From contig NZ_JBAHZA010000002.1 in the NCBI RefSeq assembly GCF_036697365.1, forward strand, positions 390,549-454,548: 64,000 nt of DNA. Direction: 5' to 3'. This document shows positions 2,583 through 64,000 of the stretch, one piece after another (positions within the stretch are counted from its first letter, which is position 1; each line of letters starts with the position of its first letter). This DNA is from Psychromonas arctica. Its GTDB lineage: Bacteria; Pseudomonadota; Gammaproteobacteria; Enterobacterales; Psychromonadaceae. The notes under the pieces are model-generated. The model did no database searches. It was not told the DNA's origin and worked only from the letters and a program-made list of their open reading frames with translations. The position numbers and the translations under genes are program-made.

Positions 2583-5228
2583 CTACTGTACCAGTGCTTT
2601 TGTAACTTTCTCATACAGATCGACAGCCAAATTAGGCAATGCTAATAATCTATTGAGTTGCACTTTAATCAGTTCTACACGCTTTTCATCTAAACGTTTG
2701 AATTGAATTAGTGGTGTAATTAAACGAGATGCGACTTGCGGATTTTGACTGTTCAACTTAATTAATTGATCAGTTAAGAATGCATACCCACTGCCATCAA
2801 TATTATGAAAACGGTAAGTATTATTCTGTGCAAATGCACCAACTAAAGAACGTAGACGGTTTGGATTACTAAAATCAAAGCTACGGTGATTAAACAATGC
2901 TTCAATATTTTGCAATACATTATCAGACGGCATACTTGCTTGTAAGGCGAACCATTTATCCATTACTAAGCCTGTTTCAAACCACTTATCATCAAACGCT
3001 TGCATCACAGATGCTCGGCAATCTAACAAACCACTATTAGCAGCGTTCAGTGCACCAAGGTAATCAGTCATGTTATTACATGCGTCAATTTGTGCTAAAA
3101 CGTATTCATTTGCTAATTTTTTATCTACACGAGCAATGAATGCCAGTGCACTATTTTTTAATTTACGTTTAGCAATATCTTCAATATCAGGTTGATACGC
3201 TTTTAATTCGTTATGATGTAGATAAGTATCTACAAATAACTCATGCAATTGCGTTGCAATCTCTTGCAGCATAAAGTCACGCGCTGTGTGTATTGCATCA
3301 ATATCCACTACATCAAATAACTCACGAGCACCATTTTCACTAGTGAAAGCAAACATATCAGCTACTAATGAAGGATCTAAATCTTCACTAACCAAGACCG
3401 ATTTAAAACCATCGATAAATATTTCAGGTAACGATAACATTTCTACATTCTGCAATGCTTTAACGTTTTTCACTAAATATTTGTTGAATAGGGTTTGTCC
3501 TGCATCCCAACGAGAAAATTCATCACTAGCGAAACTCATGATATCTAATAATTGCTCATCACTGTAAGCATATTGATATTTAACAGGCGCTGAAAAACCA
3601 CGGAATAAACATGGAACAGGTTTAGTTAATACATTCTTGAATACAAAAGTTTGTTCAGTATGAGTGAGACTTAATACACGGTTAGTTTTTCCCGGTAATA
3701 ATTCAATCGCGTTACCATTGCTGTCCAGCAACTCAATATCAACAGGGATATGCAACGGCAATTTTTTCTTTTGATCAGCAGTCGGTAAAGTCTTCTGTTT
3801 GAAAGTGATTTGGTAAGTTTGATTACTGCTATTGTAATGGTCCGTCACATAAACGTGCGGTGTACCCGATTGCGAATACCAACGTTTAAATAACGACAAA
3901 TCAATACCACTAGCATCTTGCATTGCCGCGACAAAGTCATCACAGGTTACAGCTTGTCCATCAAAACGTTGTACATAAAGTTGCATACCTTGTTGGAACT
4001 TCTCTTCCCCTAATAACGTATGCATCATTCGAATCACTTCAGATCCTTTTTCGTATACCGTTAATGTGTAGAAGTTATTCATTTCCATCACACTTTCTGG
4101 ACGAATTGGATGCGACATAGGACCAGCATCTTCAGCAAACTGATGATCACGCATAGTCATAACATTGGCAATACGATTAACACTACGACTGCCTAGATCA
4201 GAACTGAACTCTTGATCTCGAAATACGGTTAACCCTTCCTTCAAGCTTAACTGAAACCAATCTCGACAAGTAATACGATTACCCGTCCAGTTATGGAAAT
4301 ACTCATGGCCAATCACAGCTTCGATACCTAAATAATCTTGATCCGTTGCACTTTGCGAATTAGCTAATACAAATTTAGAGTTAAATACGTTTAAGCCTTT
4401 ATTTTCCATGGCGCCCATGTTGAAGAAGTCAACGGCAACAATCATGTAGATATCAAGATCGTATTCTAAATTAAAACGTTGTTCATCCCACTGCATTGAT
4501 TTTTTCAGTGATACCATCGCATGTTGAGTTTTATCTAAGTTACCTTTATCAACAAATAGAGCGAGTTTTACATCACGCCCACTTTTGGTTACAAAATTAT
4601 CTTCTAAACAATCAAAGTCTCCTGCCACTAGAGCAAATAAATAAGCAGGTTTAGGGAATGGGTCAACCCATGAAACAAAATGACGACCATTTTCTAAATC
4701 GCCTTGATCAACTTGGTTACCGTTTGATAGTAAATATGGATATAAGGCCTTATCGGCAATCACTTTAGTACTGAATTTTGCTAATATATCAGGACGATCT
4801 AAATAGTAAGTAATACGTCGGAAGCCTTCTGCTTCACACTGTGTACAAAACGCATCACCAGATTTATATAAACCTTCAAAGGCTTGATTCGCTACAGGGT
4901 CAATTTCAGTATTAATTTCTAAAGTAAACGAGGCAGGCAATTGGTTAATAACAATGCCATCTTCAACTAATTGATAATCGGAGTATGCAACGCCATCAAC
5001 CAAAATAGAAATTAAGGTTAATGATTCACCGAATAGAAACAATGGTGTTACTTCTGTGTTAACACGCTTGACTTGGCTTACTGCTTTTACTTTTGTTTGG
5101 CTATCAAACAGATCAAACTCAAGGTCAATCGTGGAGATAGTGTAATCTGATGGACGGTAATCGCTAAGGTGCTTTTCTTGCGGATTTCTTTCAATAACTT
5201 CTTCTACGAGAGAGTCAGACTGGCTCAT
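2583..5228 (-). CDS. pepN: aminopeptidase N (M1 family zinc metallopeptidase)
   Basis: 881 aa. GAMEN motif (FNMGAMENKGLN) and HEYFHNWTGNRIT...EG zinc-binding HExxH-E motif. The length matches PepN. Confidence 0.95.
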   Translation of the reverse strand: MSQSDSLVEEVIERNPQEKHLSDYRPSDYTISTIDLEFDLFDSQTKVKAVSQVKRVNTEVTPLFLFGESLTLISILVDGVAYSDYQLVEDGIVINQLPASFTLEINTEIDPVANQAFEGLYKSGDAFCTQCEAEGFRRITYYLDRPDILAKFSTKVIADKALYPYLLSNGNQVDQGDLENGRHFVSWVDPFPKPAYLFALVAGDFDCLEDNFVTKSGRDVKLALFVDKGNLDKTQHAMVSLKKSMQWDEQRFNLEYDLDIYMIVAVDFFNMGAMENKGLNVFNSKFVLANSQSATDQDYLGIEAVIGHEYFHNWTGNRITCRDWFQLSLKEGLTVFRDQEFSSDLGSRSVNRIANVMTMRDHQFAEDAGPMSHPIRPESVMEMNNFYTLTVYEKGSEVIRMMHTLLGEEKFQQGMQLYVQRFDGQAVTCDDFVAAMQDASGIDLSLFKRWYSQSGTPHVYVTDHYNSSNQTYQITFKQKTLPTADQKKKLPLHIPVDIELLDSNGNAIELLPGKTNRVLSLTHTEQTFVFKNVLTKPVPCLFRGFSAPVKYQYAYSDEQLLDIMSFASDEFSRWDAGQTLFNKYLVKNVKALQNVEMLSLPEIFIDGFKSVLVSEDLDPSLVADMFAFTSENGARELFDVVDIDAIHTARDFMLQEIATQLHELFVDTYLHHNELKAYQPDIEDIAKRKLKNSALAFIARVDKKLANEYVLAQIDACNNMTDYLGALNAANSGLLDCRASVMQAFDDKWFETGLVMDKWFALQASMPSDNVLQNIEALFNHRSFDFSNPNRLRSLVGAFAQNNTYRFHNIDGSGYAFLTDQLIKLNSQNPQVASRLITPLIQFKRLDEKRVELIKVQLNRLLALPNLAVDLYEKVTKALVQ

Positions 5229-47739: not shown

Positions 47740-48855
47740 ATGACAAACACTGATGAGATTATTGAAATTGAAAACCAAGATGAGCTAAATTTAGCTGTTC
47801 GTCCTGTTTATATGGAAAATGACATCAACGTTCGTATTGCAAAAGAACAATCGAGCGTATTTGAACTACTTCGCCGTGAAAAACGCGGTGATCTTATCTT
47901 AGCCCCTGACTTTCAAAGAAACGATGTTTGGGATTTAAAACATAAATCAGAGTTAATCGAGTCCATTCTAATGGGATTTCCGATCCCTTTAATTTATCTT
48001 TTTGAAAATGAAAACGGTATTAGACAAGTAGTCGATGGTAAGCAGCGAATTAGCGCCCTAAAAGCGTTTCTCAATAATGAATTCGCCCTCACAACACTAT
48101 CAATGTTGCCAGACCTAAAAGGTAAAACCTTTGATGATATACGCCCTCTTTCACAAGCAAAGCTAGAAGATTACCAATTACATACTTATGTGATTCAACC
48201 TCCCACTCCGGAGTTTGTAAAATTTAATATTTTTGAGCGTGTTAATCGAAGTGGTATCAGCATTAATAAACAAGAGATGCGACACGCCTTGTATCAAGGT
48301 AAAGCGACTGATTTACTGCAAGTACTAGCAGAAAGCACCGCATTCAAGCTGTGCACTGATAATGGGGTAAAACCAGATCGAATGCGTGACCGCTATTTAC
48401 TATTACGTTTTATCGCTTTTTATCTATTAAAGGCAGAACAAACACCTACAACCAATATTGAATACAAGTCAGATATTGACTCTTTTCTCGCCGCTACAAT
48501 GGCATATTTAAACGAGAAAGCATCTGATGAATTAATTCAACATATTACACAAACTTGTTTGCAAGGTATGCACAATATTTACCAAATAATAGGCGATCAG
48601 GCTTTTCGTTTTGATAGCAAAGCCTCGGCACATAAACGCCCTATCAATATCGGATTATTCGAAATGTTAGTCTTTGCATTTGGCCATATAGAGCTCGATA
48701 AAGTGAACATAGAAAAGGCTAAAAATCTCATTAAAGAGAAAAAAGCTTATCTCGATGAGCAAGGTATTTTTGGTGGTAGCATCGATACTATTGAACATGT
48801 AACAATGCGGTTTAACACTGCTCTAGAAATAACGGAAGGATTAACCAATGCTTAA
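47740..48855 (+). CDS. DUF262 domain protein (ParB/Srx-like, GmrSD N-terminal nuclease/NTPase fold)
   Basis: Motifs DFQRNDVW and the DGQQR-type VDGKQRISAL, plus the hydrophobic pattern (ILMGFPIPLIY) characteristic of DUF262. Confidence 0.8.
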   Translation: MTNTDEIIEIENQDELNLAVRPVYMENDINVRIAKEQSSVFELLRREKRGDLILAPDFQRNDVWDLKHKSELIESILMGFPIPLIYLFENENGIRQVVDGKQRISALKAFLNNEFALTTLSMLPDLKGKTFDDIRPLSQAKLEDYQLHTYVIQPPTPEFVKFNIFERVNRSGISINKQEMRHALYQGKATDLLQVLAESTAFKLCTDNGVKPDRMRDRYLLLRFIAFYLLKAEQTPTTNIEYKSDIDSFLAATMAYLNEKASDELIQHITQTCLQGMHNIYQIIGDQAFRFDSKASAHKRPINIGLFEMLVFAFGHIELDKVNIEKAKNLIKEKKAYLDEQGIFGGSIDTIEHVTMRFNTALEITEGLTNA

Positions 48856-57019: not shown

Positions 57020-58438
57020 ATGGTTGATTTTAGCCGACTAGCTTATGTTGATCTTGAAACAACAGGAACCAAACCAACACGAGATCAAATAACAGAAATT
57101 GCTATCGTACAAACCCTCAACGGAGTCATAGTTGATAGGTGGCAATCGCTAATTTACCCAGATACAAACATCCCCTTAATGATTCAGAAGTTAACGGGAA
57201 TAACTCCTGAGATGGTGGCAGACGCCCCAACTATCGATCAAGTTATTCCTACTGTTATTGAAAAGCTTAAAGGACATGTTGTCGTTGCACATAATGCACG
57301 ATTTGACGTGGGCTTTTTAAAAAATGCCTTTAAACAAAACAATGTAGAATTTAAATATCCAGTCGTGTGCACCGTTAAACTCTCACGAGAACTATACCCA
57401 AGTTTCAAAAGACATAACCTTGATAGCATCATTAAACGCTTTGATCTAACCTGTGAAGCGAGACATAGAGCAATGGACGATGCGGCTATTTTACCGCAGA
57501 TAGTTGCACGTATGACGGGTGAATTTGATGAAGCCAAAGTCATGAAAGCTATGCAATCTCAACAAAAGCTATCTAGTGTTCCGCCCCATATAAACCCTGA
57601 TATTTTCTCAACTATGCCCAATGAACCCGGAGTTTATTTGTTCTACGGCGAAACAGGTAATTTATTATATGTTGGTAAAAGCGTACAAATCAGAGCGAGA
57701 GTCATTTCACATTTTTCTAGCGATCATAGTCATGATAGAGAAATGCGTATGGCTCAACAAGTATATGATATTGAATGGATAACCACAGCGGGTGAATTTA
57801 GTGCGTTAGTTTTAGAATCCGAATTAGTTAAGTCACGCGCCCCTTTATTCAATAGGCAGCTTAGAAAACAAAAATCTCTATTTACAATCTATTGGGAAAA
57901 CAGTACGAATGAGAATGTTGCTCAACCAAGTGTGATTGATATTAATACTTTAAATACACAATCGAAAAAAGCATCACTACGTAACACCTACGGACTTTAT
58001 AAAAACCGCCGAACCGCACTTGAAGCCCTACGTAAATTAAAAGATGAAAATCAACTATGCGGAATACAATTAGGTTTAGATAAAGGAAAAGGCCCTTGTT
58101 TTTCCTATCAACTTAAAAAATGTAAAGGTATTTGCTGTGGCCAAGAGTCGAACATCAGTTACCAAATGCGAATGCAACAAGCATTTTCACCGATAAAAAT
58201 TAAAGGTTGGCCCTACTCAGGTGCAATTGGCATTAAAGAGTACAATGAAACAAGCGATATAAGCTGTATTCATATTATTTCGCATTGGTTATATTTAGGG
58301 AAAGTGAATAATGAAAGTGAACTAGCAGACTTTAATTTTAATGTGACCGCCAAACTGGATATAGACTTTTACAAGATATGTATTTCTCAGTTACAAAAGA
58401 GCCCTGCGTTGATTAATTTAGAAGATATTATTTCATAA
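57020..58438 (+). CDS. DnaQ-like 3'-5' exonuclease domain fused to GIY-YIG nuclease domain (Cho/UvrC-N-like)
   Basis: DEDDh motifs (YVDLETTG; VVAHNARFDVGFL; the H of RHRAMDDA), followed by GIY-YIG (GVYLFYGETGNLLYVGKSVQIRARVISHF). The C-terminus is Cys-rich (CFSYQLKKCKGICC). Confidence 0.8.
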   Translation: MVDFSRLAYVDLETTGTKPTRDQITEIAIVQTLNGVIVDRWQSLIYPDTNIPLMIQKLTGITPEMVADAPTIDQVIPTVIEKLKGHVVVAHNARFDVGFLKNAFKQNNVEFKYPVVCTVKLSRELYPSFKRHNLDSIIKRFDLTCEARHRAMDDAAILPQIVARMTGEFDEAKVMKAMQSQQKLSSVPPHINPDIFSTMPNEPGVYLFYGETGNLLYVGKSVQIRARVISHFSSDHSHDREMRMAQQVYDIEWITTAGEFSALVLESELVKSRAPLFNRQLRKQKSLFTIYWENSTNENVAQPSVIDINTLNTQSKKASLRNTYGLYKNRRTALEALRKLKDENQLCGIQLGLDKGKGPCFSYQLKKCKGICCGQESNISYQMRMQQAFSPIKIKGWPYSGAIGIKEYNETSDISCIHIISHWLYLGKVNNESELADFNFNVTAKLDIDFYKICISQLQKSPALINLEDIIS

Positions 58439-59019: not shown

Positions 59020-59757
59020 TTATTTTTTTAACTCATAAATATCAGTTTGAGCCTTATTAACTTGGTCTTTGGATATGTTTTTTACCACTTTTTTGGTAAA
59101 ACTAGGTGTTTGAATATAATAGCTAATTTCACCTTCGTGTTCAGTCTCATATTGAACCTGTAAAATGTTAGTACCTTTGATTAAGTTTAAATCTGTAAGT
59201 CCACCTGAGCCTCCAAAATACATTAAGCTTTCATCGTTTAAGGTAGCTTGAAAAGAACTCATTCTTTCAGAGTAAATAAAAGCAGCATCTTTATTGCCTA
59301 AAGTAATTTGTTCTTTTTCTGGCCTTTCTTTTGTGTAATTCAAGTAAAACTTTGACGTTATAACACCTGATTCTTTTTCACTTGAAACATAATAGAAAGG
59401 AATATATTCCGTTGAGCTTGTTAAACCAAAGCTAAATTTTCTAGGTGGAGAAAAGTTTGCCCTTTTTCTATCAAACTTTAATTCAATGGTATTCTCGCCC
59501 TCTTTTAATACAAAGGCTAATATGTCTTGAACAAAAGGAGGCATATCTTGAAATTGATTTTTAAGTGGATTTTCTTCATTAAAAATTTTTAGACCTGAAA
59601 CAGCTCCTTTACCTACAGGTTTTCCATTAATTTTGAGTTGTACGTCGTAATTACTATTATGACCGGAAACGAACGCTTTAATATTTTGACTAGCCTTGGA
59701 TGCCATACTTATAAAAAATATTGAAATTATAATTAATAAACTCGCTCTTTTGCTCAT
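59020..59757 (-). CDS. hypothetical secreted protein
   Basis: Signal peptide MSKRASLLIIISIFFISMASKA. 245 aa. Confidence 0.45.
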   Translation of the reverse strand: MSKRASLLIIISIFFISMASKASQNIKAFVSGHNSNYDVQLKINGKPVGKGAVSGLKIFNEENPLKNQFQDMPPFVQDILAFVLKEGENTIELKFDRKRANFSPPRKFSFGLTSSTEYIPFYYVSSEKESGVITSKFYLNYTKERPEKEQITLGNKDAAFIYSERMSSFQATLNDESLMYFGGSGGLTDLNLIKGTNILQVQYETEHEGEISYYIQTPSFTKKVVKNISKDQVNKAQTDIYELKK

Positions 59758-59963
59758 ATTTGCTTCTTCTTTTTAATTGTTATGTTTATATTTTTTGCTG
59801 AAAACATCGATAAAGCCTTGAACTTCAATTACTATTTGCAACATATATTGTTCACATTATGCTCAATCGACTCACGGTTAAAAGTAATAACACACTCAAC
59901 ATTATTTATTAACTTACAAAATAGTACATCCATTAAAATTTTATGGCTGTCTACGATCTTTCG

Positions 59964-60461
59964 CTAGACCTTAATTATACTAGGGTACCTGAGCAAGCCA
60001 AATGAAACTTTACAAGCTTGAATTATCTCTTCTTGCCTTTTTTCTTTAGACCAACCATTAATATGCTCACAATACCATTCGTCTTCATAAATTGTATATT
60101 CTGAAAACGACTCAGGGTAACCTAAAAATACATTAGCATCATAAATCTTGGAGGCTCCGTCTTCGGGAGGAAGCATTCCTCGGATAACTTCATGGGCTAA
60201 AATTTTAACATAACCCTCGACAGCCTCTTCAAGCTTAGGAAACTTTAGATCTAACTCAGAGATCACAATATTAAAGTGCTCATCTACTTCAAATTCATTT
60301 AGTGGATTTAATAAAGAGGCCAAAATACAAAGGTTTTCGGTTTCGACGCCTTGCTCAAGTAAACTCATAGCCCAATTGACTTTAAGTTTACTTCCACCGA
60401 CTGTCATTGCAATCAAACCGAAAGCTTTAATTGTTTCTAATTCTTGCGTAGAAGTCAGCAT
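59964..60461 (-). CDS. hypothetical protein
   Basis: 165 aa ORF co-oriented with the islet genes. No recognisable motif. Confidence 0.4.
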   Translation of the reverse strand: MLTSTQELETIKAFGLIAMTVGGSKLKVNWAMSLLEQGVETENLCILASLLNPLNEFEVDEHFNIVISELDLKFPKLEEAVEGYVKILAHEVIRGMLPPEDGASKIYDANVFLGYPESFSEYTIYEDEWYCEHINGWSKEKRQEEIIQACKVSFGLLRYPSIIKV

Positions 60462-60549
60462 ACTATCCCAGATACAATAAAATAGCTTTTTAAAATCAGC
60501 GACCTGCGAGCAATAACCAACTGCCCTGCTTAAATAACTTATTATACAT

Positions 60550-60879
60550 TTATTCTACCAACTCAATAACTTTGATAGTTGGTCTAGAATCTCCGAGCCA
60601 AAATTTAGTACCAGTAAATAGTTTTATTGAACTATGAGACTTACTATTAAAAGAAATCTCAAAGTCTCCATGTATTGTTAATTCACTTTTGTTACCAATA
60701 GCCACTCCACCAGCGATTCTTAAGTCTGATGTGCAAACTTTATAGTCAGCAGGCTCGATTGATTTCAAAATCCAAGATTTACCTTGTGGGACCTCATAAT
60801 CATTAGACTTCTCCAAAGTCAATTCATTAGCAAAAATTGGCAAAGAGAAGAATAAAAAGACGAAACTTAAGATTTTCAT
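60550..60879 (-). CDS. hypothetical small secreted protein
   Basis: Signal peptide MKILSFVFLFFSLPIFA. 109 aa. Preceded by copy 1 of the repeat element. Confidence 0.45.
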   Translation of the reverse strand: MKILSFVFLFFSLPIFANELTLEKSNDYEVPQGKSWILKSIEPADYKVCTSDLRIAGGVAIGNKSELTIHGDFEISFNSKSHSSIKLFTGTKFWLGDSRPTIKVIELVE

Positions 60880-60884
60880 ATATC

Positions 60885-61150
60885 ACTTCGAAACGTATAA
60901 CTAGGCTGTAGAACTTCTCATTTTCAGCCTGTTTATTTTAAATAAAAAATGACAGTATCTTACATTTACTTGAGATTAAATAGATTATTTTATTTTTATT
61001 AACTAATTAATTAAATTGAGCTATAAATGGGGTTAGAAGGCTAAACACACGGAATTTATTGAGTTAAGGGTTGAGCAGTTCCGTTAATGTAAACTATTCC
61101 TTAGCTTCTCACCGTTATAACGAACAGTATGAATGAGACGGTACATTTAC
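60885..61150. repeat. repeat element copy 1 (~265 bp) upstream of a minus-strand gene
   Basis: Shares ends and an internal hairpin (aggctgtagaaYttctcattttcagcc) with the region at 63745-64000. The conserved end blocks are aatgtaaactattcctta...acgaRcagtacattt. Confidence 0.6.
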
Positions 61151-61602
61151 CATTGCGTATTCATTTTATCTTGGCGACACAAAATGAGTTTACTCATCCT
61201 TTTATTACCCCTCTGATTTTAAAAATAAGAACAGTAGACGCTATTCGTCTACCTTATTTAAATAATAGGCTGCAACCTCGAAAAGTGTATATTGAAATAC
61301 ACTGGGAATAATTTACTGTTCAAAATCAATCGAAATGAATTTACTTGGGCAAGATATATCAGGTTTGCCTCTTTACTTTAAAAGAGTGCAACCATGTTTA
61401 TCTCTGAGTAAAATAACTATCAGGTCACGGACGATCAGCTCAATAAAGATTATTTTTCGTACAATGAGATTATAAAAAAGAACATAAAAACATTATTTTT
61501 GGAGAAATGCTAAAGTCTCAACGTCACATTAAGCGGACTAGAATAGTGAATTAGAAAGTGATACGTATCCACTATTTTATTTACGTTTAATCTCCTGCTA
61601 TA

Positions 61603-62010
61603 TCATTTTATATACTCAAGCATTGTTAGCTTAACAATTACATTAATATTGTTATCTGTTGCCTCTATTGTAATTTTTCTATTTTCACCATCCGAAAAAC
61701 TTGACCCCACCATTTTATAACCATTAGCATTTAAATATTCTCTAAGCTCATTTTTAATTTGAGTTGAGTCTTTCATACTATGGAATATAAGAGAAATTAT
61801 CATTGGCTTATTGCCGTCACTGGAATTATAAATATAACGTTCCTCAATAATATCTGCAGATGAAATGTTTTTAAATAAATTAGGAGCGAGTAAATAATAA
61901 TCAAGCGAAGACTTAGAAAAATCCCTCCTTTCCGATAAAGATATCATCGAATAGTAAAACCCTAGTAATACAATTGATAATACACTGAAATATATTAATT
62001 TTTTTATCAC
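61603..62010 (-). CDS. hypothetical membrane-anchored protein
   Basis: N-terminal TM/signal-anchor KLIYFSVLSIVLLGFYY. 135 aa. Confidence 0.4.
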   Translation of the reverse strand: MIKKLIYFSVLSIVLLGFYYSMISLSERRDFSKSSLDYYLLAPNLFKNISSADIIEERYIYNSSDGNKPMIISLIFHSMKDSTQIKNELREYLNANGYKMVGSSFSDGENRKITIEATDNNINVIVKLTMLEYIK

Positions 62011-62055
62011 TTATTTTACCTCACAAAACAATACACCCTGCTTTACGGGAGTAAT

Positions 62056-62394
62056 TCAATTGAAAGCATGACGAAGAGACATCCTTAAAGGCGTTGATCT
62101 AGACGAGTTTGGAAGAGGATAGATATAAGGGATCGTAGTAGTATTTTTATTATCACCGCCCCCCATATTTATCCCATATTTCAAAGCGATATTTTTGCTG
62201 ACAAGTTCGCAAATAGAAATGAATTGATTATTTGGTTCTACCGCCCGATAAAACCCAATTAGGTTTGCAACAAAATCTTCTGCACTAAAACTACTATTGG
62301 TAAAGTTACTGAACAACCAATTTCCCCACATGGTTTCGAATCCTTTAGATACGCCAAGAAAAATTGCCAATGAAATTGATTTATTGTCTGCCAA
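62056..62394 (-). CDS. hypothetical protein (TTG start in ORF track; may begin at an internal ATG)
   Basis: 112 aa ORF. No recognisable motif. Confidence 0.3.
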   Translation of the reverse strand: MADNKSISLAIFLGVSKGFETMWGNWLFSNFTNSSFSAEDFVANLIGFYRAVEPNNQFISICELVSKNIALKYGINMGGGDNKNTTTIPYIYPLPNSSRSTPLRMSLRHAFN

Positions 62395-62431
62395 GCTAAT
62401 TATTTTTTTATATCATAAAAAAATAATTAGC
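62395..62431. repeat. perfect 16-bp inverted repeat with 5-nt loop exactly filling an intergenic gap
   Basis: gctaattattttttta-tatca-taaaaaaataattagc. Confidence 0.7.
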
Positions 62432-62727
62432 TACCTACCATAATAATGGCTTGCATCTGAGCATAGTACTTCCACTTTTTTCCTCTTACCTTTAAGTTTG
62501 AACACGATTTCATCTGTATTAATTGAAACAATTTCAACAAATTGGAACTGCTTACCTAATTCACCAGGAATTTCATAACTCCAACCAGCTTTTTCAGAGC
62601 GACACATGTGAAGCTTATTATTCTCAATTTTTAGAAAAAATCGCCATGATGTATCAGCGATAAGGTAATTATCATTGTGAGCCGACTTAATATTGTCAAA
62701 TAGAGATTCTTCTTCACCAAAAGTCAT
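62431..62727 (-). CDS. hypothetical protein
   Basis: 98 aa ORF, co-oriented with the islet genes. Confidence 0.35.
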   Translation of the reverse strand: MTFGEEESLFDNIKSAHNDNYLIADTSWRFFLKIENNKLHMCRSEKAGWSYEIPGELGKQFQFVEIVSINTDEIVFKLKGKRKKVEVLCSDASHYYGR

Positions 62728-62815
62728 AATTTCCCAGAGCCATATAACAGCTCAAACGCCGGATTGTGAATGTTGGCGAATTTTTTAAACGTTTTCTCAA
62801 AAAAGGTAACAGTAT

Positions 62816-63283
62816 TTACAATTCCGCGTGCTTTGGCTTGTTAAATTTTAGCTCCATTGGCTGATACGTTAGCCCTGCTGATTCTGATACACAGCCAGAA
62901 CACTCGAATCCATACTGCCGATAAGCCGAAACGGATGTTAGTGATGCGCTAACAGTGACGATATCATTTTTAGCATACGGGAGCATTGCTGAAACCAACG
63001 ACTTACCCACGCCTTTTTTCTGAGCGCCAGGAGATACGAAAAGCATGGCAATGTGGCGGCCTTCTTTAAGCTCAAGAAAACCTACTACTTCACCATTATT
63101 CTCGTAAACCAGCATTTCATTATCTGCGTCCATTCGTCTTTCTAAGCTTCCTCTAGATGCAATTCTCTGAAATGTTTGAATCCCCTTTTTTCCCAGTGTT
63201 GGTGCTATCGTTTCCATAAAAGCATCAATGCATATAGTGCTTACACCGCATAAATCTGCTGAGTTAACTTTTCTAATTGACAC
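62816..63283 (-). CDS. GNAT family N-acetyltransferase
   Basis: Motif A region VVGFLELKEGRHIAMLFVSPGAQKKGVGKSLVSAM. 155 aa. Confidence 0.75.
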   Translation of the reverse strand: MSIRKVNSADLCGVSTICIDAFMETIAPTLGKKGIQTFQRIASRGSLERRMDADNEMLVYENNGEVVGFLELKEGRHIAMLFVSPGAQKKGVGKSLVSAMLPYAKNDIVTVSASLTSVSAYRQYGFECSGCVSESAGLTYQPMELKFNKPKHAEL

Positions 63284-63390
63284 CGATGCTCCTTGTGAAC
63301 TTAACGCCTCAATAAGGGGCTAAAAATTGTTTGCTAAAATGTGTAGCGAAGTGAAACCAAGTAAACTGTTTTTAATTCCGCTTAATTAGC

Positions 63391-63738
63391 TTATTGTAAC
63401 TTTATGCTATTTTCTAACTCTTTTAACAATCTGCTATTTTCAAGTCTTAAAAAAGCAACCTCTTCTTCTAATGACATTTTCTTTTTAGCTGGCTGCTCAC
63501 CTTCATGTAAGTCTCTTATTTCAAGCATAATTTGCTCAGATGAAACAATATCTCCTACTTTTGCTTTAAAGTTATCTACAACGCCAGAACGAGGTGCTGG
63601 CAACTCTATGGATACTTTTTCACTTTCTACATCTAGCAAAACATCCCCTTCCTTAACTGCCTGCCCATCATTAACGTATATCACCGTGATTTTTGTTTCA
63701 CCCATTGAAGAGAAAAGCTCTGGAAGTTTGACATCCAT
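63391..63738 (-). CDS. biotinyl/lipoyl-attachment domain small protein with C-terminal coiled-coil tail
   Basis: The lipoyl-domain pattern EGDVLLDVESEKVSIELPAPRSGVV...VGDIVSSEQIMLEI has the E-x-E-K Lys position. RBS aaggag. Preceded by copy 2 of the repeat element. Confidence 0.5.
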   Translation of the reverse strand: MDVKLPELFSSMGETKITVIYVNDGQAVKEGDVLLDVESEKVSIELPAPRSGVVDNFKAKVGDIVSSEQIMLEIRDLHEGEQPAKKKMSLEEEVAFLRLENSRLLKELENSIKLQ

Positions 63739-63744
63739 GTTTAA

Positions 63745-64000
63745 ATACTCCTTAAGTTATAACGAGGCTGTAGAATTTCTCATTTTCAGCCCGATTATTT
63801 AAAATAAAAAACACATTAATTCATATTTAGTTGAGATTCCAATAGATAATTCGGATTTTCAATAAATGATTGATTAATTTGAGTTGTAAAGACGTATATG
63901 AAGTTATTTAGGCTGGATTATTGCGGTTTAAGGGCTTAGCCTTTGGCTTAATGTAAACTATTCCTTAACTTCTCTATATTATGAACGAGACAGTACATTT
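63745..64000. repeat. repeat element copy 2 (runs to window end)
   Basis: See copy 1. Both the hairpin and the terminal blocks are conserved. Confidence 0.6.

Follow-up and report, generated by a model that had tools for sequence, protein, structure and literature searches.

The window, i.e. the whole 64-kb stretch of DNA that was analysed, ends in a series of small and mutually unrelated ORFs (59020-63738) that all lie on the minus strand. Among the ORFs of this neighbourhood, only GNAT, biotin/lipoyl and exonuclease/GIY-YIG proteins were recognisable by Pfam. The lipoyl domain that the initial annotation had assigned to a 115-aa protein was found in this way, and a 109-aa protein with a signal-peptide-like N-terminus gave no match (Table 1). 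The genes of these two proteins are each preceded by one copy of a repeat, here called copy B and copy A, respectively. Since the ORFs are on the minus strand throughout, the repeat was read on this strand too. The gene bordering the array (57020-58438) codes for a 472-aa fusion of DnaQ-like 3'-5' exonuclease (RNase_T) and GIY-YIG nuclease domains, and about 580 nt, apparently non-coding, separate it from the first minus-strand ORF.

Table 1. Positions of the repeat copies, cassette ORFs and attC sites in the terminal region of the window (IRL and IRR, left and right terminal inverted repeats; R1, attC covariance model).
Feature	Positions	Strand	Evidence
109-aa cassette ORF downstream of copy A, signal-peptide-like N-terminus	60550-60879	-	no Pfam match
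GTTATAC: IS-flanking GTT and start of the next cassette (integron R' core, joined between G and TT)	60895-60901	-	
Copy A: internally deleted, decayed, non-autonomous IS1182-family IS, 618 bp, both ends kept	60902-61519	-	blastn, tblastn
Copy A IRR, 16/18 with respect to GAGAAATTCTACAGCCTC; 3' arm and loop of the hairpin	60902-60919	-	
Copy A hairpin, 27 nt	60903-60929		
Copy A transposase C-terminal remnant, aa 490-531, with in-frame stop; stop codon 61084-61086	61084-61224	-	tblastn
Copy A transposase N-terminal remnant, aa 26-62	61256-61366	-	tblastn
Copy A IRL, degenerate, GAGACTTTAGCATTTCTC, 14/18 matches	61502-61519	-	
attC of 135-aa cassette; its R' GTT (61520-61522) adjoins copy A IRL	61520-61603	-	R1 33.6 bits, E = 1e-4
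attC of GNAT acetyltransferase cassette, unoccupied	62746-62846	-	R1 26.2 bits, E = 0.005
attC of lipoyl-domain cassette, unoccupied, ending in ...GAGGCGTT followed by AAGT	63303-63399	-	R1 69.8 bits, E = 2e-12
115-aa biotin/lipoyl-domain cassette ORF downstream of copy B	63391-63738	-	Pfam PF00364, E = 1.7e-14
GTTATAAC: flanking GTT of copy B and start of lipoyl-domain cassette (integron R' core)	63756-63763	-	
Copy B: right end of a second decayed IS of another subfamily, cut at the window end	63764-64000	-	
Copy B IRR	63764-63781	-	
Copy B hairpin, 27 nt	63765-63791	-	
Copy B transposase remnant, aa 516-531; stop codon 63948-63950	63951-63998	-	

The repeat and its decayed transposase genes

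The initial annotation had described a unit of about 265 bp in two copies upstream of two unrelated minus-strand genes, with the reservation that the likeness might be mere AT bias. Formal alignment showed that the repeat is real, the copies being identical in 79% of positions as mean column identity (MAFFT, from ~60894/63756 outward) and in 74% over 233 nt (blastn). The near-identical 27-nt hairpin is found exactly twice in the 64-kb window and in none of 100 shuffles, and, in agreement with the initial annotation, no U-run follows it. It is also correct that each copy adjoins a different small gene, copy A ending 22 nt and copy B 25 nt before the ATG of the minus-strand ORF. The extent of the unit, on the other hand, had been set too small, as copy A reaches 61519 and copy B runs past the window end. 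The conserved distal end exists as a sequence, in that the 20-mer TTAATGTAAACTATTCCTTA occurs twice (61084 and 63948), but it is not a structural end: it codes for a transposase remnant that finishes with EKLRNSLH and a stop codon.

The palindromic GTTATAAC, reported at both ends of both copies, corresponds to the sequence only loosely. The proximal end of copy A reads GTATAAC, and copy B carries GTTATAAC at its proximal end only. The distal GTTATAAC of copy A (61113-61120) was rejected as an element end or target duplication, because it sits inside the transposase remnant, where it codes for VRYNG, within a 12-nt indel that separates subfamilies and is missing from copy B. The occurrences of GTTATAAC do not qualify as target-site duplications of the 265-bp unit. 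The indel itself lies at the transposase C-terminus (61113-61124 vs. 63975, HTVRYNGEKLRNSLH vs. HNIEKLRNSLH) and creates this distal GTTATAAC.

Read on the gene strand, each copy comprises the final codons of a transposase gene that is no longer intact, then some 170 nt that are non-coding, the 18-bp right terminal inverted repeat GAGAAATTCTACAGCCTC and a GTT. The hairpin is this inverted repeat together with a short subterminal complement (GGCTG...CAGCC, with CAGCC within the repeat). Similarity between the copies ceases after the GTT, and the 22-25 nt nearest the RBS are not conserved between them. The copy number, which it had been proposed to check, goes well beyond the two copies of the window: an exact-pattern scan for the hairpin, with one genome per species, found it at 32 loci in 13 Psychromonas assemblies, with up to six or more copies per genome. 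Every copy is conserved through ...CTACAGCCTC GTT A and is followed by unrelated sequence in which an ORF with an RBS soon starts, and upstream of the hairpin the conservation runs on into a transposase gene. Dozens of unrelated cassettes in other genomes have the same sequence in front of them, and the stretch between it and the start codon is unrelated every time.

Matches to an intact transposase (see below) were obtained by tblastn in both window copies. When the intact IS of locus L008 was compared with copy A by blastn, its left 250 bp corresponded to 61282-61537 and its right 300 bp to 60899-61206. Copy A occupies most of a 722-nt gap that is apparently non-coding, and an ORF overlapping it on the plus strand (61129-61311) was discarded as spurious. 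The 75-nt segment at its deletion joint (61207-61281) has no match in any of 155 loci; it includes a hairpin (61233-61253, GTAGACG...CGTCTAC plus a T-run) that looks like a terminator on both strands. We also considered copy A as a MITE amplified to many copies and rejected this possibility, because neither the deletion joint nor the 75-nt middle has a match in the 155 loci; copy A is a one-off deletion derivative.

Copy B has a perfect right repeat. It could be followed beyond the window on L001, a 3.7-kb metagenome contig that was the sole one found with an identical lipoyl protein and that reaches 380 nt or, by another count, at least 580 nt past the window end. More of the transposase pseudogene lies upstream there, with aa ~56-415 missing. 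The distal block, whose ORF ends on the gene strand with ...FTLRGQEKVSAQWKMYCLVHTVRYNGEKIRSSLH and a stop, matches Pfam PF13751 (DDE_Tnp_1_6) with E = 5e-13 when it is extended by L001 and the upstream frames are joined. Stops or frameshifts interrupt the transposase remnant in both copies, and neither contains an intact transposase ORF, so that both fail as autonomous IS and are presumably inert today. The subfamily nearest to copy A is that of strain SP041 and P. arctica (83-91%), and that nearest to copy B is found in P. aquatilis and KJ10-10 (91-94%). Since the two copies are only 74% alike and are nearest to different subfamilies, they derive from independent insertions and not from a local duplication.

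The parent insertion sequence

The intact transposase is a 531-aa ORF in L008, which matches the NCBIfam profile IS1182 (NF033551) over positions 25-485 of 488 with E = 2.8e-78. The score of 264 bits is 6 bits short of the curated cut-off of 270, and for this reason the family label is given here as IS1182-like. The Pfam architecture comprises DUF772, DDE_Tnp_1 and DDE_Tnp_1_6, all over threshold, and a 512-aa homologue that is 81% identical carries the NCBI name "IS1182 family transposase". The intact element measures about 1848 bp and contains a single ORF. Its terminal inverted repeats, GAGGCTGTAGAATTTCTC ... GAGAAATTCTACAGCCTC, match at 18 of 18 bp in L008, L013, L025 and L035, and at the right end of L034 the repeat is kept at 15 of 18. 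In Psychromonas sp. KJ10-10 three copies, 99.6-100% identical over ~1865 nt, occupy different loci with different flanks. The complete inverted repeats together with the differing flanks define the ends of the element. A homologue with a 72%-identical transposase is present in Shewanella goraebulensis, and further transposase homologues were found in Colwellia, Marinomonas and Pseudoalteromonas.

Most left ends carry, directly after the repeat, a terminator-like hairpin with an A-tract and a T-tract, whose stem shows compensatory changes between lineages (GAGCG/CGCTC, GGAACAT/ATGTTCC and GACGT/ACGTC). At the right end, the terminal ~125 nt are 85-92% conserved, as compared to 66-69% in the preceding 70 nt. 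Many of the copies are fragments that comprise the right end only.

In its DDE transposase architecture and profile, its single ORF in ~1.85 kb, its terminal inverted repeats and its near-identical multiple copies, the element agrees with the IS1182 family. The present lineage differs from this family in its profile score, which is below the curated cut-off, and in having a strict attC R' target (GGCGTT^A) and a strict orientation. No report of attC targeting or strict orientation for IS1182-type elements was found in the searchable literature, ISfinder being outside the scope of this search.

The cassette array and the target site

On the left, every full copy is bordered by an imperfect palindrome of ~90-105 nt, which runs from ...ATAACAA to ...GGCGTT and is directly followed by the left repeat. 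Eleven such flanks fold to a common hairpin of 24 pairs; compensatory changes are seen in 17 of these, and AAC pairs with GTT at the base of the hairpin. This shared fold with its AAC-GTT base is the architecture of an attC site. An attC covariance model (R1) was built from the 11 left flanks and gave 38 matches across the genome loci, oriented like the IS. In the window, R1 yielded three matches only at E < 0.01; each is on the minus strand and falls between ORFs in the terminal region (Table 1). A candidate fourth site at 48148-48241 (+) scored 15.7 bits (E = 0.82, with filters off and E up to 1) and was treated as a chance match.

The window end (~61520-64000) is thus an integron-type gene-cassette array on the minus strand. 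Like sedentary chromosomal integron arrays and CALIN of the Vibrio VCR type, it contains small unrelated ORFs on the same strand, and behind each ORF there is an imperfectly palindromic stretch of ~90-100 nt that has ...TAAC...GTTA... ends and keeps its structure via compensatory changes; a congener (P. ingrahamii 37) possesses intI. The 265-bp repeat, in contrast to the VCR-type attC repeats of Vibrio, is not an attC but an IS relic lodged in the array. This also settles the earlier suggestion of a recombination site used to shuffle small genes. The suggestion was right about the neighbourhood, as the small genes are cassettes and the GTTATA(A)C beside the hairpin is a cassette boundary (the R' core, joined between G and TT), and it was wrong about the object, as the 265-bp element is no such site, the attC sites being those at 63303-63399, 62746-62846 and 61520-61603.

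No integron integrase is visible in the window, and the array passes the window end at 64000; the locus could be either a CALIN or a complete integron. The same IS is found in P. ingrahamii 37 behind the first cassette, with a divergent 324-aa integron integrase one cassette upstream of it (TIGR02249, 448 bits as compared to a cut-off of 265).

R1 detected no attC after the 165-aa and 245-aa ORFs. The spacer that follows the 109-aa ORF (60462-60549) gave no R1 match either, and its likeness to the local attC family is confined to the 5' half (...TTATTTAAGCAGGGCAGTTGGTTAT...). As attC is missing or halved after the 109-, 165- and 245-aa ORFs, the distal part of the array looks degraded. A perfect 18-bp palindrome (62394-62432, AGCTAATTATTTTTTTAT gat ATAAAAAAATAATTAGCT) stands between the 98-aa and 112-aa ORFs, at the place where an attC would be expected; it has the look of a bidirectional terminator and no R1 match. 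The adjacent 112-aa frame contains an in-frame stop in L001.

In Psychromonas and Shewanella, full copies share one structure: an attC ending in GCGTT, the IRL, the body of the element, the IRR and GTTAnn. More precisely, GTTA(G/T)N and then the next ORF come after the right repeat. The sequence before the IRL and that after the IRR are ...GAGGCGTT and GTTAGGTTTC in S. goraebulensis, and ...GCGGCGTT and GTTATATACC in P. ingrahamii 37. In the window, the IRL of copy A adjoins the R' GTT of an attC in the same manner.

An unbiased scan of metagenomes, with the 18-mer repeat as the only query, returned 120 loci and 130 occurrences with flanking sequence. Left ends preceded by CTTAnnnnGGCGTT accounted for 69 of the 130 and right ends followed by GTTA[G/T]N for 49, so that 118 of the 130 ends are flanked by GTT; matches to the repeat that lack this flank amount to ~9%. 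In the metagenome loci, the left junction fell within 4 nt of the end of an attC-profile match in 52 of 67 cases. The transposase gene and the attC lie on the same strand in all the loci having both (33/33). This targeting of attC by the lineage is well supported.

Sites with the same 3' halves that are free of the IS carry a single GTT followed by A. Occupied sites, compared with these, show a 3-bp duplication of GTT, which is equivalent to an insertion made precisely at the point of IntI crossover. GTT on both sides fits a target-site duplication, which is how we are inclined to read it, and IntI-type joining would leave the same pattern. An exception to the attC rule is seen in a Psychromonas MAG (L033, SMAG_U4020, minus strand, ~2865), where CGTGAGC, and not GTT, comes after a right-end fragment of ~92 nt. 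Upstream of this fragment there is a 399-aa frame without the obvious character of a cassette gene.

Interpretation and relation to known systems

The two repeats are very probably the fossil right ends of two independent insertions of IS1182-family DDE elements at the attC R' core of a Psychromonas-like cassette array. The occurrence of the same element before two unrelated genes would follow from this, because an IS inserted there necessarily has its right end only a few bases before the next cassette's RBS and start codon. For this window, the outcome is an ordinary one, namely two IS relics of two subfamilies within a cassette array.

In the mechanism that we propose, the IS lineage would integrate at the R' core 5'-GGCGTT^A-3', at the point between G and TT where IntI joins cassettes. 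The DDE transposase would bind the terminal repeats, insert the element at GGCGTT^A and duplicate GTT (3 bp), always in the orientation that makes the transposase gene co-directional with the cassettes. The terminator-like hairpin of the left end may shield the transposase gene from read-through and make the insertion polar on upstream transcription. The upstream attC would stay recombinable, its R' now reading GTTGAGG, and the downstream ORF would lose its own 5' boundary, IS and ORF then travelling as one composite cassette. Later internal deletions would leave right-end relics joined to the 5' side of cassette ORFs, next to which they would be preserved because of this composite nature. The finding of the same relic with the same cassette in two species (L015 and L023) agrees with the composite-cassette idea.

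A different reason for the persistence of right ends has to be considered. The conserved ~125 nt might have been retained as a portable outward promoter or 5' leader for otherwise silent cassettes, a function that is plausible by analogy with Pout of group IIC-attC introns, which provide a precedent (Leon et al., 2010, PMC3001079). The step in conservation from 66-69% to 85-92% would suit such a function, as would the many right-end-only fragments directly 5' of an ORF, and a terminator-like left end would mean that downstream cassettes need a new promoter. However, subterminal conservation is expected anyway from transposase binding, and the gene strand of the right end contained no sigma-70-like match, the sites in the region numbering 14 as compared to 14.8 expected in shuffles. 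We therefore regard a promoter or leader function as unlikely. The earlier proposal of a MITE-like mobile element carrying promoter activity keeps its first half, since the copies are deletion derivatives of an IS1182-family IS and copy A has both repeats, and loses its second, no outward sigma-70 promoter standing above chance.

Since IntI insertion would automatically place the boundaries between G and TT on both sides and impose a strict cassette orientation, the element might itself be an integron cassette, moved and oriented by IntI rather than by its own transposase, with the 3' hairpin and GTT as a minimal attC. The hairpin stem can in fact be extended by ATAA(A/T)C ... GTTAT to a miniature shape of R'', L'', loop, L' and R'. 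Nevertheless, the R''-like box is AAT and not AAC in the main subfamily, with no unpaired spacer before L'', the right end has no match to R1, and it does not match GCCTCAAC, which a circularised element would need. Moreover, the hairpin is missing in more than half of the metagenome right-end lineages, and its stability is not above that of shuffles. Perfect 18-bp terminal repeats, an intact DDE transposase and the presence of several nearly identical copies are instead the signature of transposition, and movement by IntI appears very improbable. We likewise rejected the whole unit as one very long attC and the hairpin as a mini-attC, which have the wrong geometry and gave no R1 match in either of the copies, even up to E = 1 and with the filters off.

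A cis-regulatory RNA co-regulating both genes (riboswitch, thermosensor or protein-binding leader), which the initial annotation had put forward as a shared leader and which a conserved stem-loop ~25 nt upstream of the RBS would suit, is scarcely credible, as the stem-loop is the inverted repeat of the IS, the conservation halts at the end of the mobile element and leaves out the 22-25 nt next to the RBS, the same sequence stands before dozens of unrelated cassettes elsewhere, an Rfam gathering scan of the whole window gave no matches, and the hairpin with its flanks shows no extra stability with respect to shuffles (z = -0.8 and -0.9 for the window copies).

The insertion of IS1182-type elements at attC, the reading that we prefer, can be compared with what is known of other mobile elements in integrons. 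The IS1111-attC group is reportedly the subject of work by Tetu and Holmes in 2008 and by Post and Hall in 2009. Its members (ISPa21, ISPst6, ISKpn4 and ISUnCu1) are attC-specific, insert in one orientation and have a DEDD (IS110/IS1111) transposase that is guided by a seekRNA (PMC11187229). The present lineage shares with them the specificity for attC and for orientation. It differs in being of the DDE IS1182 type with perfect terminal repeats and GTT on both sides, whereas the IS1111-attC group has subterminal repeats and causes no duplication, and also in its position, which coincides exactly with the point of IntI crossover. Group IIC-attC introns (S.ma.I2 and relatives) are attC-specific, lie between cassettes and block transcription from Pc (Leon et al., 2010, PMC3001079). 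They resemble the present IS as attC-specific mobile elements located between cassettes, but as retroelements they enter the bottom strand, and they have outward promoters shown experimentally, none being detectable in the present IS by consensus scan. These two are the known attC-specific mobile elements. Cury et al. (2016) found IS in 23% of complete integrons and described no such specificity.

As to the parent element, we consider the chances even that it represents an undescribed "IS1182-attC" group, consisting of DDE elements that insert in one orientation at GGCGTT^A, leave the upstream attC intact, become fused to the downstream ORF as a composite cassette and are widespread in the chromosomal integrons of marine Gammaproteobacteria (observed here in Psychromonas and Shewanella). 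If this is true, the group would constitute a third class of attC-targeting mobile elements, distinct in its mechanism, after the RNA-guided IS1111-attC group and group IIC-attC introns, and would raise the question of how a structure-defined and sequence-variable attC is recognised by a protein-only DDE transposase without a guide RNA. Such elements would insulate downstream cassettes by their left-end terminator, generate composite cassettes and provide repeats by which arrays can be rearranged or CALIN formed, with a bearing on the expression and reshuffling of large chromosomal integrons. For the annotation of the window, the gain is two IS relics, three attC sites and a cassette array, the small ORFs being integron cassettes. 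Right-end relics shift the 5' boundaries of cassettes and could mislead the annotation of cassettes and attC sites.

Some loci show the 18-bp repeat in other arrangements. In L100 (SPKZ01002178.1, ~1637-1654 and 3498-3515), a right repeat and GTT are directly followed by the left repeat of another element (...GAGTAATTCTACAGGCTC GTT GAGGCTGTAGAATTTCTC...), which reflects either a tandem insertion, with the GTT that the first copy had recreated as its target, or a junction of the dimer or circle type. A transposase match was present in only 46 of 156 loci. Short elements with the same 18-bp repeat and unrelated interiors (CATTTTCAGAAAAAA... or CAAAGTGGAAAATGACGGATGAAATTTATGTTCATACAGCC...) occur in L007 (109-126), in L031 (minus strand, 4528-4545) and in a large number of metagenome loci such as L042, L086 and L116. 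MITE-like families with the same ends and the same GTT target probably exist.
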